Positions 43,050-46,912 of a stretch of 64,000 bases of DNA are shown in pieces. This DNA comes from a virus (lineage: Duplodnaviria; Heunggongvirae; Uroviricota; Caudoviricetes). A program made the translations under genes and the position numbers. Below the pieces are notes generated by a model. The model was given only the letters and a program-made list of their open reading frames with translations, did no database searches and was not told the origin of the DNA. The stretch lies in the IMG/VR virus record IMGVR_UViG_3300029305_005988, positions 59,096 to 123,095 of that record; one strand, written 5' to 3'. The first letter of the stretch is position 1, and each line of letters starts with the position of its first letter.

Positions 43050-43901
43050 ATGACTTATACTCTAAAAAATGGTGAGACTATTGAATCTATACCAATTGGA
43101 CGTTCCTCTGTGATTATAGGAGAAAAAAGTCCAAGTGGAATGCTAACAGTTTGTGATCGAGGCCCTGCTCCTATTAGCGGGAGAGGCGCCACCGTAATCT
43201 GTCAATGCTAGTGCGGAAAATATACTCTTATTAAATTAAATGAGTTGCGAACAGGTAATACTAAATCTTGTGGTTGTTATGCACAAGAAAAAGCAAAAGA
43301 AAATGGTAAATATGTAGGCTCTTTACCTAAAAAAGCAAAAGATTATACACTTATAGATAATCCTTTTTATACTTTTATTCAAAGAACAGATAAAAAAGAT
43401 ATTTCAAATAGTTTCTTTTGGATAGTACAGTGTAAAAGATGCGGCAAACAATATGAAGAAGTGCCTTCTCAAATTATTTCTACCACTCGAGCACGAGGCA
43501 ATAATCCTTGTAGTTGTTGGAAACATTTAAGTAAAGGAGAGCAAAAGATCATAAATCTGCTTTTAAATAACAATATTTCCTTTTCACAACAAGTGACTTT
43601 TAAAGATTGCCTTTCTCCACTAGGGAACCCTTTAAAATTTGATTTTTTTATTGAACAAAAGTATTTAATTGAATTTGATGGTGAGTAGCATTTTTTACCT
43701 CAACAATTTGGAAATAACGAATCTGGAGAAGAAAAATTAAAGCTTACTCAAGAATACGATGCAATTAAAAACCAATGGTGTAAAAATAATGGAATTCCGC
43801 TAATAAGAATTCCTTATACTCATTACAGTCAATTAAATATTAAAGATTTATTATTAGAAACAAGTAATTTTATATTAAAGGAGAAAATAAATGCCGAATA
43901 A
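43050..43901 (+). CDS. Zn-finger + Vsr/DUF559-like (PD-(D/E)XK) endonuclease, HEG-like; 2 in-frame TAG (43209, 43686)
   Basis: RBS aaaaggagatgaataaaaatg; ...VICQC*CGKY...KFDFFIEQKYLIEFDGE*HFLPQQFGN...; ORF 43245-43688 is the middle segment. Confidence 0.5.
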
Positions 43902-45171
43902 AATTTATAATGAAGATAGTACGCAACATATATCTCCTCGAGAGTTTACACGAAAAAGACCTGGTACCTATTGTGGTTCAACCGAGTATAGCACACAGCT
44001 TATTCGAGAGCTATTCGCCAATGCTTTAGATGAACACAATATAGGCCATGGTAATGTAATTTCAATCGAGGCTGATACAAAAAAGAACTTGTATACGGTT
44101 ACAGACTTAGGACAAGGCTTTATCCCTGGCGCGCCAAGAGAAAATGGGGAAACAATGTTTTCAGAATGTTTCTCGGTTATTAATACTTCAGGCAAGTATG
44201 ATGATGCTGATGATTCGATCTATGGTGGAAGTGCTCTAGGACTCAATGGTATAGGCATGAAGTTAGTCTGTTACCTTTCAAGCTGGTCTCAAGCTACAAC
44301 AACCAATGGCAGCGGCAAGAGAGAAACAATTACCTATAAAGATGGTTTGTTTGAATCGCGTCAAATTACCGACGAAAAGAAAGATATTCACGGTACAACA
44401 ATTAGTTATCAACCAGATCCTCAATTCTTCCAGCATCAAGAAGCAAACTTTGACGAGTTGAGAAAGATGTTTACCGACATCGCCGCACTTTGCCCCATGC
44501 TTACTATTGAACTTACTGTTGACGGAAAAAAAGAAATATTCCACTCTTCAAGAGGTTTAAATGACTTGATTGATGCAAAAGTTGGTGATAATGAAATTCT
44601 TTCAAATCGTTTTATTGCGCGTAGAGAGTCGGGCGCAGATCTCTTTGATATTTGCTTAACTTATACTTCTAATTATTCAGAAGATGTAACGGGTTATGTT
44701 AATTTTGGTTTAACTGAAAGCGGCGTTCATATGACGGCTTTGAGAACTAATTTAACAAGACTAATTAATAAATTTGCGAATGATAAAAAGATGTTTAAAG
44801 CAGGAGAGTCAAATCTTACTGGACAGGAGCTCTCTGAAGGACTTGTAATTATTTTCAATCTTAAAGCAAAAAAGGTTGCTTATGATAGCCAGTCAAAAGT
44901 AAGAGTTGTTGACATTGATAAGACATTGATTAATCAGACTCTAAGTGAAGACTTTGCTCAATGGCTTGAGTCTAATCAAAAGGATGTTAAAATTATTATT
45001 GACAAAGCGCTAAGTGCTCGTAGAGCAAGAGAGGCTGCTAAAAAGGCGCGCGACGCGGCTCGAGGCGACAAAAAGAAAAAGGAAAAGGCGCTTAAGTTTG
45101 ACTCTAAACTAGCAGATTGTTATTCAAAGGTTCGCGCCAACTGTGAGATCTATGTAACTGAGGGTAAGTGA
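43891..45171 (+). CDS. gyrB: DNA gyrase/topo II subunit B, exon 1 (GHKL ATPase + transducer), ends inside TOPRIM motif
   Basis: GHKL ATPase motifs; ...CEIYVTEG then K-stop from intron. Confidence 0.8.
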   Translation: MPNKIYNEDSTQHISPREFTRKRPGTYCGSTEYSTQLIRELFANALDEHNIGHGNVISIEADTKKNLYTVTDLGQGFIPGAPRENGETMFSECFSVINTSGKYDDADDSIYGGSALGLNGIGMKLVCYLSSWSQATTTNGSGKRETITYKDGLFESRQITDEKKDIHGTTISYQPDPQFFQHQEANFDELRKMFTDIAALCPMLTIELTVDGKKEIFHSSRGLNDLIDAKVGDNEILSNRFIARRESGADLFDICLTYTSNYSEDVTGYVNFGLTESGVHMTALRTNLTRLINKFANDKKMFKAGESNLTGQELSEGLVIIFNLKAKKVAYDSQSKVRVVDIDKTLINQTLSEDFAQWLESNQKDVKIIIDKALSARRAREAAKKARDAARGDKKKKEKALKFDSKLADCYSKVRANCEIYVTEGK

Positions 45172-46273
45172 AAACTATTGCCCGAATCCTTTTTACCATT
45201 AATCAGTGGGGTCACAATTATTGTGGCTAACGGGGAAAGCTGACCATTACACAGATATGTCAAAATCTGTTTAGGTGAAGTCAATCCCGTGGCAAAATTT
45301 TAAAATTTTTAGGTCAAATCTTGATAAATTTCTTACTCTCACTTTCATATATAAATAGAAGGAGACAGAGTACTTCTAATATATTTGAAATAAGGAGAAT
45401 AATAATGATTGGAATTTACAAGTACACAAACAAAATTAATGGGAAACACTATATTGGATAGAGCATTAATTTAGAAATGCGCAAATATGCACATAAATCT
45501 TCTGCTTTTAATGAAAATGCTAAAGATTATAATGCTCAATTTCATCAAGCAATTCGTAAATACGGTTGGGATAATTTTGATTATGAAGTAATCGCAGAGT
45601 TAACCCCAGAAGAATATACGAAAGAAGGACTTGATGCCTTAGAAAGATATTTTATTAAATATTACGACTCTTTTCATAATGGCTATAATGCCACCGAAGG
45701 CGGAGATGATAATCCACTTAGGGCGCAAAAAGGCTCTGCCAATGGGCGTGCGCTTTTAACAGAAGAGGATGTTATTTATATTAGAGAATGTTATAATGCA
45801 CATATTCCTTTTAGAGAGGTTTATGCAGAGTATCAAGATAAAATATCTAAAAGAGGGCTTCAAAAAGTATGGTGGTTTGATACATGGAAAGATATCTATC
45901 CAGAGTATCATACAGAAGAAAATAAAAAATGGCATGCTACAAAAGCAAAAGCTAATGCTTCAGAGGTTGCCGCAAATAATAAACGCAGTTTTACCGAAGA
46001 AGAAGTTAAAAAAATGAGAGAAGAGTACGACAATGGAATGTCACCAAAGCAAATTTGGCTAAGATATGCACCAGAGAAAGCTTGGTCGACAGTTTATAAT
46101 GTTGTAACAAGACAGACCTATAAAGATATTTAAAATAAGCTGTATCGACTATCCCGAGTGAGATCGGGAGTAGAAATGTTATTGATACGCATTTCGAAAT
46201 AGAGGACACGATGATGACCTGACAAGTCGGAGTGAAGAGATAGTCAGTGCCTATAGAAATATAGGAGCACATG
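45166..46273 (+). mobile_element. group I-like intron in gyrB carrying GIY-YIG HEG
   Basis: 5' exon ends ggT, intron ends atG; splice restores [11 protein letters not shown] = TOPRIM EGDSA motif; candidate P1 pairing gggu/gccc. Confidence 0.55.
45405..46133 (+). CDS. intron-encoded GIY-YIG homing endonuclease with in-frame TAG at 45459
   Basis: MIGIYKYTNKINGKHYIG*SINLEMRKYAH...GYNATEGG; ORF 45477-46133 is its body. Confidence 0.7.
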
Positions 46274-46912
46274 GATAGTGCGTCTGGAAACCTTAAGTCA
46301 GCTCGAAACAATGAGTTCCAGGCTGTAATGCCAGTTCGAGGTAAAATCCTTAATTGTCAAAAGAATACGCTGGATAAGATCCAAAAGAACGCAGAGATTA
46401 TGACTATGATTGAGGCATTTGGTCTTAAAGCAGACCCTAAGACGATGAAACTTACCTATGACAAAGACTCACTGCGTTATGGCAAGATTATTATAGCTGC
46501 TGATGGAGATGCTGATGGTAGCCATATTCGAAACCTGTTTTATACTTTTATCTGGAACTTCTGTCCGCAACTTATTCAAGAGGGATATGTGTATGCTCTT
46601 GTAGCGCCGCTCTATAAGATTACGATGGGTAAAGATACTTATCTATATTTAAGAGACGATAAAGAATTGGCTGAGTTCCAAGAGAAAAATAGAGGAAAAA
46701 AGTATCAGGTCAATAGATTTAAGGGATTAGGTGAAATGTCAGAGGACGAGACTGAAATTCTTGTAGACCCAGGCTTAAGAGTGCTAAATCAGGTTGCGGT
46801 TGAAGAAGCAAAGAAAGCAGATGTCTTATTTGATCAATTGATGGGCGTTGGGGTTGCAGCGAGAAAGAAGTTTATTCAGGATCATAGCAAGGAGGCTAAA
46901 TATGGAGTATAA
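46271..46912 (+). CDS. gyrB: DNA gyrase/topo II subunit B, exon 2 (TOPRIM + tail)
   Basis: DSASGN...[13 protein letters not shown]...[17 protein letters not shown] ~ GyrB EGDSAGGS...PLKGKILNVEKAR...IMTDADVDGSHI. Confidence 0.75.
   Translation: [213 protein letters not shown]

Follow-up and report, generated by a model that had tools for sequence, protein, structure and literature searches.

A probable td-like group I intron with a TAG-containing homing endonuclease gene in the TOPRIM motif of a phage type IIA topoisomerase gene

How can a phage topoisomerase gene function when it is interrupted in the middle of a catalytic motif? This question is raised by a 64,000-nucleotide stretch of DNA from a virus of the class Caudoviricetes (positions 59,096 to 123,095 of the IMG/VR record IMGVR_UViG_3300029305_005988; hereafter, the window), in which two open reading frames (ORFs) encoding parts of a GyrB/ParE-like protein are separated by 1108 nt. 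ORF1 (43891-45171, 426 aa) ends with ...CEIYVTEGK*, its TGA stop codon lying two codons inside the insert, and ORF2 (46271-46912, 213 aa) begins with MDSASGNLK...; the insert, 45166-46273, is preceded by T (GGT|AAG) and its last base is G (ATG|GAT). All these coordinates and sequences had been given exactly in a first-pass annotation that a model made from the sequence. The insert is, with high probability, a splicing-competent mobile group I intron of the T4 td type (group IA), and the locus reads as follows:

43891-45165, plus strand: exon 1 of the GyrB/ParE-like gene, encoding the GHKL ATPase and transducer domains and the start of the TOPRIM motif as far as ...YVTEG
45166-46273, plus strand: predicted td-like group I intron of group IA, 1108 nt (Rfam RF00028, covariation, comparison with T4 td)
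45405-46133, plus strand: GIY-YIG homing endonuclease gene, 242 codons, in the P6a loop, its last codons overlapping the P6a 3' strand
46274-46912, plus strand: exon 2, encoding DSASG..., the remainder of TOPRIM including AADGDADG, and the GyrB C-terminal domain

Joining 45165 to 46274 (GGT + GAT) keeps the reading frame and yields a product of 637 aa, the insert interrupting the TOPRIM EGDSA motif in phase 0, after the Gly codon and before the Asp codon (EG|DSA). The joined protein matches DNA_gyraseB (101 bits), Toprim (57 bits) and DNA_gyraseB_C (56 bits) above the Pfam cut-offs, and the Toprim match (residues 419-527) covers the junction 425|426; HATPase_c scored 19.3 bits on the same protein, under its cut-off of 26.4 bits. 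When IMG/VR was scanned with the joined protein, 200 relatives were obtained, and we inspected the best 80 of these, with 53-66% identity, on phage contigs of up to 167 kb. In all 80, the homologue is a single uninterrupted gene of ~1.9 kb that covers residues 1-637 and reads CEIY[V/I]... or a close variant, gap-free, at the junction, which in the closest intron-less relative (L002) is identical to that of the joined window protein. By this evidence, ORF1 and ORF2 are the two halves of one GyrB/ParE-like gene, and the proposal that removal of the insert restores EGDSA is borne out in silico.

The gene immediately following, 47108-49450, encodes a GyrA/ParC-like subunit with C-terminal beta-propeller repeats and, because the two genes adjoin, we read the pair as a phage-encoded type IIA topoisomerase. 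The designation of the interrupted gene as gyrB at first pass is thus apt in so far as the product appears to be a type IIA topoisomerase B subunit (GyrB/ParE-like) encoded next to its partner; it goes too far if it is taken to imply a gyrase in the strict, supercoiling sense. No cultured phage with more than 34% identity to the topoisomerase was found by tblastn against GenBank phages, so the phage lineage is apparently uncultured; among the matches listed, no allele is visibly split at the EG|DSA site. Comparison with L002 (44978-49944) reveals a mosaic: the first ~1100 nt of the gene are ~50-60% identical, identity climbs to 83% at a point 187 nt before the intron site, and exon 2 together with the gyrA-like gene is 88-91% identical. 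A recombination breakpoint there, near the homing site, would agree with co-conversion driven by the endonuclease, but the TOPRIM region has an intrinsic conservation of its own.

The insert can be folded, from both of its ends, into the helices of a group I core:

45162-45183, plus strand: P1, GGGUAA 45162-45167 with UUGCCC 45178-45183 (direct reading; internal guide sequence 45174-45183)
46274-46279, plus strand: P10, 3'-exon GAUAGU with ACUAUU 45174-45179 (sequence pairing, shuffle test)
45187-45192, plus strand: P3 5' strand UCCUUU, pairing with AGAGGA 46201-46206, pseudoknotted with P7 (systematic helix scan)
45196-45225, plus strand: hairpins Pa (45196-98/45207-09) and Pb (45213-17/45221-25), between the P3 5' strand and J3/4
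45230-45290, plus strand: P4 (ACGGG/CCCGU) enclosing P5, P5a and P5b; P4 invariant, P5a and P5b covarying
45291-45304, plus strand: 5' strands of P6 and P6a, with 3' strands at 46129-46136 and 46139-46141 and the endonuclease gene in the P6a loop
46147-46245, plus strand: 3' core, comprising the P7 5' strand GACUA, P7.1, P7.2, the P3 3' strand, P8/P8a and J8/7 AAGAGAUAGUC
46152-57/46164-69, plus strand: P7.1, with several compensatory changes
46173-78/46190-95, plus strand: P7.2, with several compensatory changes
46241-45, plus strand: P7 3' strand UAGUC, the end of the 3' core
46250-46273, plus strand: P9 hairpin CCUAUA/UAUAGG and the 3' tail with the terminal G 46273, which is invariant

The P1 pairing claimed at first pass (exon gggu with intron gccc) is present and grows into a longer structure, in which the guide 5'-ACUAUUGCCC-3' (45174-45183) pairs with both exon ends, giving an unbroken 10-bp helix on the ligated GGGU|GAUAGU; when the first 40 intron bases were shuffled 20,000 times, this 10-bp P1+P10 helix was matched in only 283 cases (p ~0.014). 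The wobble at the splice site, U45165-G45180, is U-G, and all six P1 pairs are kept, in each of 11 sequences (the window intron and 10 distinct relatives, see below). At 46235-46245, the J8/7-P7 sequence AAGAGAUAGUC answers the group I consensus (AAGAUAUAGUC-like). The invariant Pa loop AUCA (45202-05) is complementary to the likewise invariant P7.2 loop UGAU (46183-86), and the two are candidates for a tertiary contact. With respect to P3, AGAGGA has only one conserved partner, located 3 nt past P1 and followed by two covarying hairpins and then J3/4. Two other P3 pairings were rejected, CUA/UAG and the GCU/AGU pairing that follows P7.1 in the Rfam alignment: they amount to only 3 bp, are invariant or are broken in one relative, and clash with the P3' position of td.

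Covariation was assessed on an alignment (A1) of the window intron and the 10 distinct relatives, with the P6a loop replaced by GAAA in the ORF-bearing introns and the ORF-less intron (L082) kept whole. A hand-built structure of 79 pairs was scored: 98.5% of the cells are paired, compared with 34-41% when the partners are slid by 1-3 columns, 30 pairs show compensatory two-sided changes, and none of 500 shuffles reached the observed covariation score. Compensatory changes are abundant in Pb, P5b, P6a (five of the eight pairs), P7.1, P7.2, P8/P8a and P9, and occur in both of the hairpins Pa and Pb; a systematic scan showed no long-range helix to be better conserved than P3. Every helix supported by the relatives is fully base-paired in the window copy. 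RF00028 matched 46051-46266, including AAGAGAUAGUC and P9, with 23.3 bits (E 0.0025), and matched L082 end to end with 37.8 bits (E 2.6e-8) in a restricted search; all group I matches came from searches over restricted ranges. E-value scans of the whole window, and of 11 related loci together, missed the intron, probably owing to stricter speed filters, and a scan of the whole window at the Rfam gathering thresholds yielded only tRNAs.

The relatives were collected by searching IMG/VR for the J8/7-P7 string and the J3/4-P4 string, which returned 14 contigs; 12 of these carry a homologous insert at the same site, GAGGGT|...G|GATAG(T/C)GC, and two near-identical pairs (L088/L091 and L093/L095) reduce this number to 10 distinct relatives. 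The cores are 84-88% identical to that of the window. The topoisomerase genes of the relatives are diverged, with widely differing downstream exons (for example, DSAASGLVGARI), and the insertion site is the same in all 10 distinct relatives. The inserts form a length series. That of L082 has 301 nt and no ORF, its P6a loop being just a few bases; those of L085 and L088, with 598 and 650 nt, contain endonuclease remnants; introns of 886-953 nt have a C-terminally shortened endonuclease ORF of 187 codons; and introns of 1077-1108 nt have the full ORF of ~243 codons. This would be the usual spectrum of invasion, decay and loss of an endonuclease gene inside a retained ribozyme. The ATG that opens ORF2 consists of the last three bases of the intron and is ACG in six of the 10 relatives, the final G being invariant. 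The arrangement of the window recurs identically on two independent Joint Genome Institute (JGI) metagenome contigs (samples 3300032167 and 3300029705), on both of which gene callers reported three separate ORFs (426, 218 and 213 aa).

Searches with nhmmer, using profiles of the two core halves, and with other methods extended the family. In L093 (L093 and L095 are IMGVR_UViG_3300012662_000055 and 3300013426_000026), a second intron lies in the TOPRIM DxD motif, AADA|DPDG. Profile matches suggest at least three, possibly four, related introns at the L092 locus, and L088 and L082 have further 3' cores downstream. The sole match in a blastn search of the region against GenBank phages is 115 nt with 75% identity, at the 3' core, in Enterococcus phage VRE9_3 (PP680569.1, our L001, ~135.7-136.7 kb). 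By the family profiles, the insert in this phage is a member of the same intron sequence family (E 2.5e-9 for the 5' core and E 1.1e-18 for the 3' core), and an annotated homing endonuclease lies between the two cores; it differs from the window in that the phage is cultured, the host gene is another one, annotated as short hypothetical proteins, and the intron is unannotated in the record. A second group I match (RF00028, 31.5 bits) is located at 137.4-137.6 kb of the same phage, near the end of the record. A scan of a 596-Gb genome collection with an 18-nt J8/7 pattern gave 19 matches, about the calculated chance expectation; three of these, L100, L108 and, more distantly, L112, are real family members, on short contigs binned with Lachnospiraceae or Bacilli metagenome-assembled genomes.

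The analogy with T4 td drawn at first pass is strengthened by these results: the two introns share the helix order, the core sequences and the placement of the GIY-YIG gene. The J3/4-P4 sequence of the window, UAACGGGGAA...CAAUCCCGUG, is nearly identical to that of td, and both introns show the order P7, P7.1, GUA, P7.2, GAAA, P3', P8, (A)GAUAUAGUC, with the ORF downstream of P6 and a GIY-YIG gene in the P6a region. The td intron reads ...UCUAUC-UAAA-CGGGGAA...CAAUCCCGUGCUAAAUUG...[I-TevI ORF]...AACGACUAU-CCCUUUGGGG-AGUAG-GGUCAAGUGACUC-GAAAC-GAUAGA-CAACUUG...CAAGUUG-GAGAUAUAGUC, and the window intron reads ...GC-UAA-CGGGGAA...CAAUCCCGUGGCAAAAUUU...[ORF]...AUCGACUAU-CCCGAGUGAGAUCGGG-AGUAG-AAAUG...CAUUUC-GAAAU-AGAGGA-CAC...GUG-AAGAGAUAGUC; the P3 3' strand AGAGGA of the window thus occupies the position of GAUAGA in td. 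As in td, the P7 5' strand is separated from the P3 3' strand by the hairpins P7.1 and P7.2, an arrangement that, in the classification of Michel and Westhof, is reportedly the hallmark of group IA. Each intron is inserted in a conserved catalytic motif of a gene of nucleotide or DNA metabolism in a large lytic phage. The host genes differ, however, thymidylate synthase in td and a type IIA topoisomerase B subunit here. Unlike td, in which P2 precedes a P3 5' strand that abuts J3/4, the window intron lacks P2 between P1 and P3; its P9 is a single short hairpin; and its endonuclease is only weakly similar to I-TevI (E 0.014) and contains a TAG codon. Nothing significant was found when the T4 td/nrdB region was searched with the family core profiles by nhmmer, and a global pairwise alignment of the window intron with td was uninformative. 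Because sequence profiles do not link the two introns, the relation to td appears to be one of shared architecture and not of close kinship.

The gene inside the P6a loop starts 7 nt downstream of a Shine-Dalgarno sequence, AAGGAG. With TAG read as glutamine, its product matches the Pfam GIY-YIG family (PF01541) with 25.2 bits, against a cut-off of 22.6, and PHROG 7168, 'homing endonuclease', with E 1e-31; the match to the I-TevI catalytic domain (1LN0) is weak (E 0.014). The GIY and YIG motifs occupy residues 3-5 and 16-18, and R26 and E97 (NATEGG) are the presumed counterparts of I-TevI R27 and E75. The single in-frame TAG (45459-45461) is codon 19, in YIG*S, and the gene contains no other stop and no frameshift, so that the ORF is closed in the standard code and open only with TAG decoded; the first-pass claim of a GIY-YIG endonuclease gene with an in-frame TAG therefore stands. 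At the position of this TAG, L083, L093 and L084 have CAA or CAG (YIGQS). In-frame TAGs of this endonuclease number one in the window copy, two in L089 and three in L093, and all but one of these fall at positions with Gln in at least one homologue. In L090 (IMGVR_UViG_3300012983_002112), three TGAs occupy invariant Trp positions (KVwWFETwK...YwHSH), at which the near-twin L083 has TGG, implying that a phage reading TGA as Trp may host the same intron. The endonucleases of L083, L087, L092 and L094/84 are free of internal stops.

The 45340-45404 segment, upstream of the endonuclease start, contains two Shine-Dalgarno-like boxes (GAAGGAGACAGAG and AAGGAG) ~30 nt apart. A single box adjoins the ATG in the relatives; ahead of this box lies a complementary CUCCUUC by which it could be occluded, a situation reminiscent of I-TevI, where the ribosome-binding site is occluded.

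Whether the TAG in the endonuclease gene can be decoded depends on the code of the phage, and the window contains the following features that bear on it:

42221-42319, plus strand: tRNA with anticodon CUA (amber suppressor) and a long variable arm (Rfam tRNA, 56.3 bits; cloverleaf in the RNAfold minimum free energy structure)
24477-25265, plus strand: GIY-YIG ORF with four TAGs and no other internal stops, inside a tRNA array
43050-43898, plus strand: free-standing homing endonuclease-like ORF with two TAGs, both of which must be decoded for it to be read (PHROG 559/9084/7140, HNH/homing endonuclease; weak DUF2726)
52724-53926, plus strand: ORF with a long coiled-coil-like N-terminal part, a C-terminal GIY-YIG domain, three TAGs and no other internal stops

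The tRNA-CUA gene lies ~3 kb upstream of the intron and has the anticodon loop CUCUAAA in the RNAfold structure; ARAGORN miscalls it as 'tRNA-???(taaa)' or as Phe with a 4-nt intron. It shares U1-A72, G2, G3 and G73 with the phage tRNA-Gln(UUG) (27813-27888). Among 41 long plus-strand ORFs of the window, 22 terminate with TAA, 19 with TGA and none with TAG. In-frame TAGs, 10 in total and unaccompanied by TGA or TAA, are confined to four endonuclease-like ORFs, one of which (43050-43898) lies immediately upstream of the gyrB-like gene as an insert that intron-less L002 does not have; the replication genes contain none. Given the tRNA-CUA, the lack of TAG terminators and the alignment of TAG with Gln codons, TAG is very probably a sense codon for this phage, in keeping with the recoded code assumed at first pass, and its likely meaning is Gln. 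Readthrough of the endonuclease TAG by the phage suppressor tRNA is, in our judgement, probable. Because the amber suppressor is encoded only 3 kb away, gating of the endonuclease by the suppressor is plausible, and temporal gating may be hypothesized. A recoding of TGA in the window was considered and rejected: 19 of the 41 long ORFs end with this codon, and readthrough would add merely a few codons.

Several points weigh against this interpretation. The support consists of anatomy, conservation, covariation and code evidence, from which we infer splicing and homing. RF00028 scored below its gathering score of 50 bits both in the window (23.3) and in L082 (37.8), so that the group I-like character proposed at first pass drew an Rfam match but fell short of the gathering score; the latter is an operational threshold and not a biological property. 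The low score of the window is explained by the ~820-nt P6a loop that holds the endonuclease gene and, the score being sub-threshold, the case rests on covariation and the architecture shared with td, both of which reveal a group I core. P4, P6 and P7 are invariant in the 11 sequences, so that covariation is silent on these helices, and they accordingly rest on similarity to known introns (td); P3 has a single covarying pair (U-A to C-G). In canonical group I introns, P2 precedes P3. The 5' order P1, P2, P3, J3/4, P4 is not found here, and the P3 5' strand and J3/4 are separated by two hairpins that have no counterpart in td. With regard to the code, the 7-bp variable arm of the tRNA-CUA is class-II-like and atypical of tRNA-Gln, which makes the inserted amino acid uncertain: a suppressor with such an arm could insert an amino acid other than Gln. 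Finally, the window has no structural genes, and the evidence of TAG recoding stays at the scale of the window and not of the genome.

It is also conceivable that the intron splices and that its endonuclease gene is a decaying pseudogene, in which the TAG is an ordinary nonsense mutation and from which no endonuclease is made. We consider this unlikely. Degeneration of the endonuclease is common in the family, as the remnants in L085 and L088 and its absence from L082 attest, and a nonsense codon at position 19 would inactivate the enzyme fully; moreover, structural and lysis genes, in which most recoding occurs according to Borges et al. (10.1101/2021.08.26.457843), lie outside the window. 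However, the ORF is otherwise of full length, with 242 codons and neither a frameshift nor TGA or TAA, and its TAG sits on the conserved Gln of YIGQS. The pattern repeats across the four endonuclease-like ORFs, with their 10 in-frame TAGs and no other stops, in a window that encodes a tRNA-CUA and where none of the 41 long ORFs ends in TAG.

Another alternative is a true gene split of the T4 39/60 or Aeh1 nrdA type, in which the insert would be a non-splicing mobile cassette and the ATPase and TOPRIM halves, translated separately, would assemble. Splits of this kind are known in T4-like phages and, in T4, gene 39/60 is split by mobA, a mobile endonuclease element that disrupts the gene for the large subunit of a type II topoisomerase (PMC2988022), as the element described here also does. 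The annotation of three separate ORFs by gene callers on the two JGI contigs would agree with such an arrangement, as would the end of ORF1 at a TGA just within the insert and the AGGAG that precedes the ATG of ORF2. Nevertheless, the split is very improbable. The AGGAG is part of the 3' strand of P9 and lies just 3 nt from the ATG; of the 10 related inserts that share the site, six lack this ATG, but all keep the terminal G; the catalytic Glu would be parted from the remainder of TOPRIM; and, were the insert a spacer, nothing would maintain the conserved, covarying core, which is present even in the 301-nt version that has no ORF. The T4 halves are made as separate polypeptides, no ribozyme is involved and the split point is elsewhere in the gene; here, a ribozyme core is present and the downstream start is not conserved. 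The likeness to 39/60 suggested at first pass thus fails at the level of mechanism. Still less credence can be given to a degenerate, splicing-dead group I intron in a topoisomerase pseudogene, a reading to which the low Rfam score of the window (23.3 bits) and the second Shine-Dalgarno-like duplication upstream of the endonuclease gene, as a local rearrangement, could be fitted, but which is contradicted by intact, stop-free exons, by the complete pairing of all the relative-supported helices in the window copy and by the identical arrangement on two independent JGI metagenome contigs, the large P6a loop accounting for the score.

If the insert is a mobile intron that splices, transcription would run through it, and the RNA would fold into the P1-P10 core, in which guanosine would attack after U45165 and the freed exon would then attack after G46273. 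The predicted ligated junction is ACUGAGGGU|GAUAGUGCG, within ...ATCTATGTAACTGAGGGT|GATAGTGCGTCTGG..., and the ligated mRNA would encode one 637-aa subunit, the partner of the GyrA/ParC-like product of 47108-49450. By analogy with I-TevI, the endonuclease would cut intron-less alleles in co-infecting phages, and repair would copy the intron in. Since the TAG is at codon 19, completion of the endonuclease requires decoding of TAG, most likely as Gln by the tRNA-CUA of 42221-42319, and production of the endonuclease would thereby be tied to the recoded translation state of the phage.

More tentatively, one intron-endonuclease family might have spread among phage topoisomerase genes with its ORF rewritten according to the code of each phage, the phage's own suppressor tRNA licensing expression and homing; we regard this as a possibility that falls short of being probable. 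The relatives differ in the code version of the endonuclease, Gln being written as TAG in the window, L089 and L093, Trp as TGA in L090, and neither recoding occurring in L083, L087, L092 and L094/84. If the spread is indeed matched to the code, a mismatch of codes would be a barrier to, or a filter on, intron transfer between co-infecting phages.

At the level of annotation, the three called ORFs (426, 218 and 213 aa) are corrected to one topoisomerase subunit and one intron-encoded endonuclease. The family repeatedly targets catalytic TOPRIM motifs of phage type IIA topoisomerases, namely EG|DSA and, in a relative, AADA|DPDG, which is evidence that phage topoisomerase TOPRIM motifs may be hot spots for introns. 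It also provides a natural series, in which the same intron occurs with a TAG-recoded, TGA-recoded, standard-code, degenerate or absent endonuclease and which is suited to asking whether stop codon recoding gates the expression of homing endonucleases. The finding leaves what is known of the workings of group I introns or of recoded phages unchanged: the intron is well supported as an ordinary type of mobile element, the twist being an endonuclease that would need the amber-suppressor tRNA of the phage.

Essential phage genes that harbour group I introns with homing endonucleases are a classical finding, exemplified by td, nrdB and nrdD of T4 (PMC2988022). In Agate phages, the endonuclease of a group I intron in an early gene is enriched in reassigned TGA, and in-frame stops have been proposed to delay production of the endonuclease (Borges et al., 10.1101/2021.08.26.457843). 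The suppressor-gated endonuclease envisaged at first pass is an independent rediscovery of that proposal and is not new. The two cases share a self-splicing intron (predicted, for the window), an early gene, a large gut or rumen phage and an endonuclease enriched in recoded stops, and L090 shows the TGA-for-Trp pattern; the window differs in that the codon is TAG (apparently Gln) and not TGA (Trp), and the interrupted gene is not named by Borges et al. Group I introns are very numerous in gut phages, and in Jug phages, metatranscriptome reads confirmed 37 of 76 predicted introns as spliced (PMC12880540). The relatives of the window resemble these intron-rich phages in carrying at least two introns in one topoisomerase gene, but Jug phages belong to another lineage, with another genome size, and their introns average ~206 nt and are mostly ORF-less; that study names topoisomerase IV merely as a core gene. 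More than half of viral group I introns are of type IA2 (PMC11835236). Our literature search found no report of a phage gyrB or topoisomerase gene that harbours a group I intron, and the EG|DSA target site appears to be new, if unremarkable in kind.

Several other features of the window concern its tRNAs and coding pattern. About 25 tRNA genes form a dense array at 18.8-31.7 kb. A weak tRNA-like gene at 26200-26275 on the plus strand (Rfam, 33.9 bits) has the anticodon UCA and is called 'SeC' by ARAGORN; because TGA terminates 19 of the 41 long ORFs, it is not a general opal suppressor here, or else is a pseudo-tRNA. The tRNA at 23076-23198, also on the plus strand (Rfam, 43.7 bits), carries 49 extra nt in its anticodon loop, an insertion too short for a group I intron, and is called by ARAGORN as tRNA-Leu(UAA) with an intron. 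Finally, standard-code ORFs at 1-18800, ahead of the tRNA array, are shorter and sparser than those at 32-64 kb, and no obvious repair results when TAG or TGA is taken as sense.

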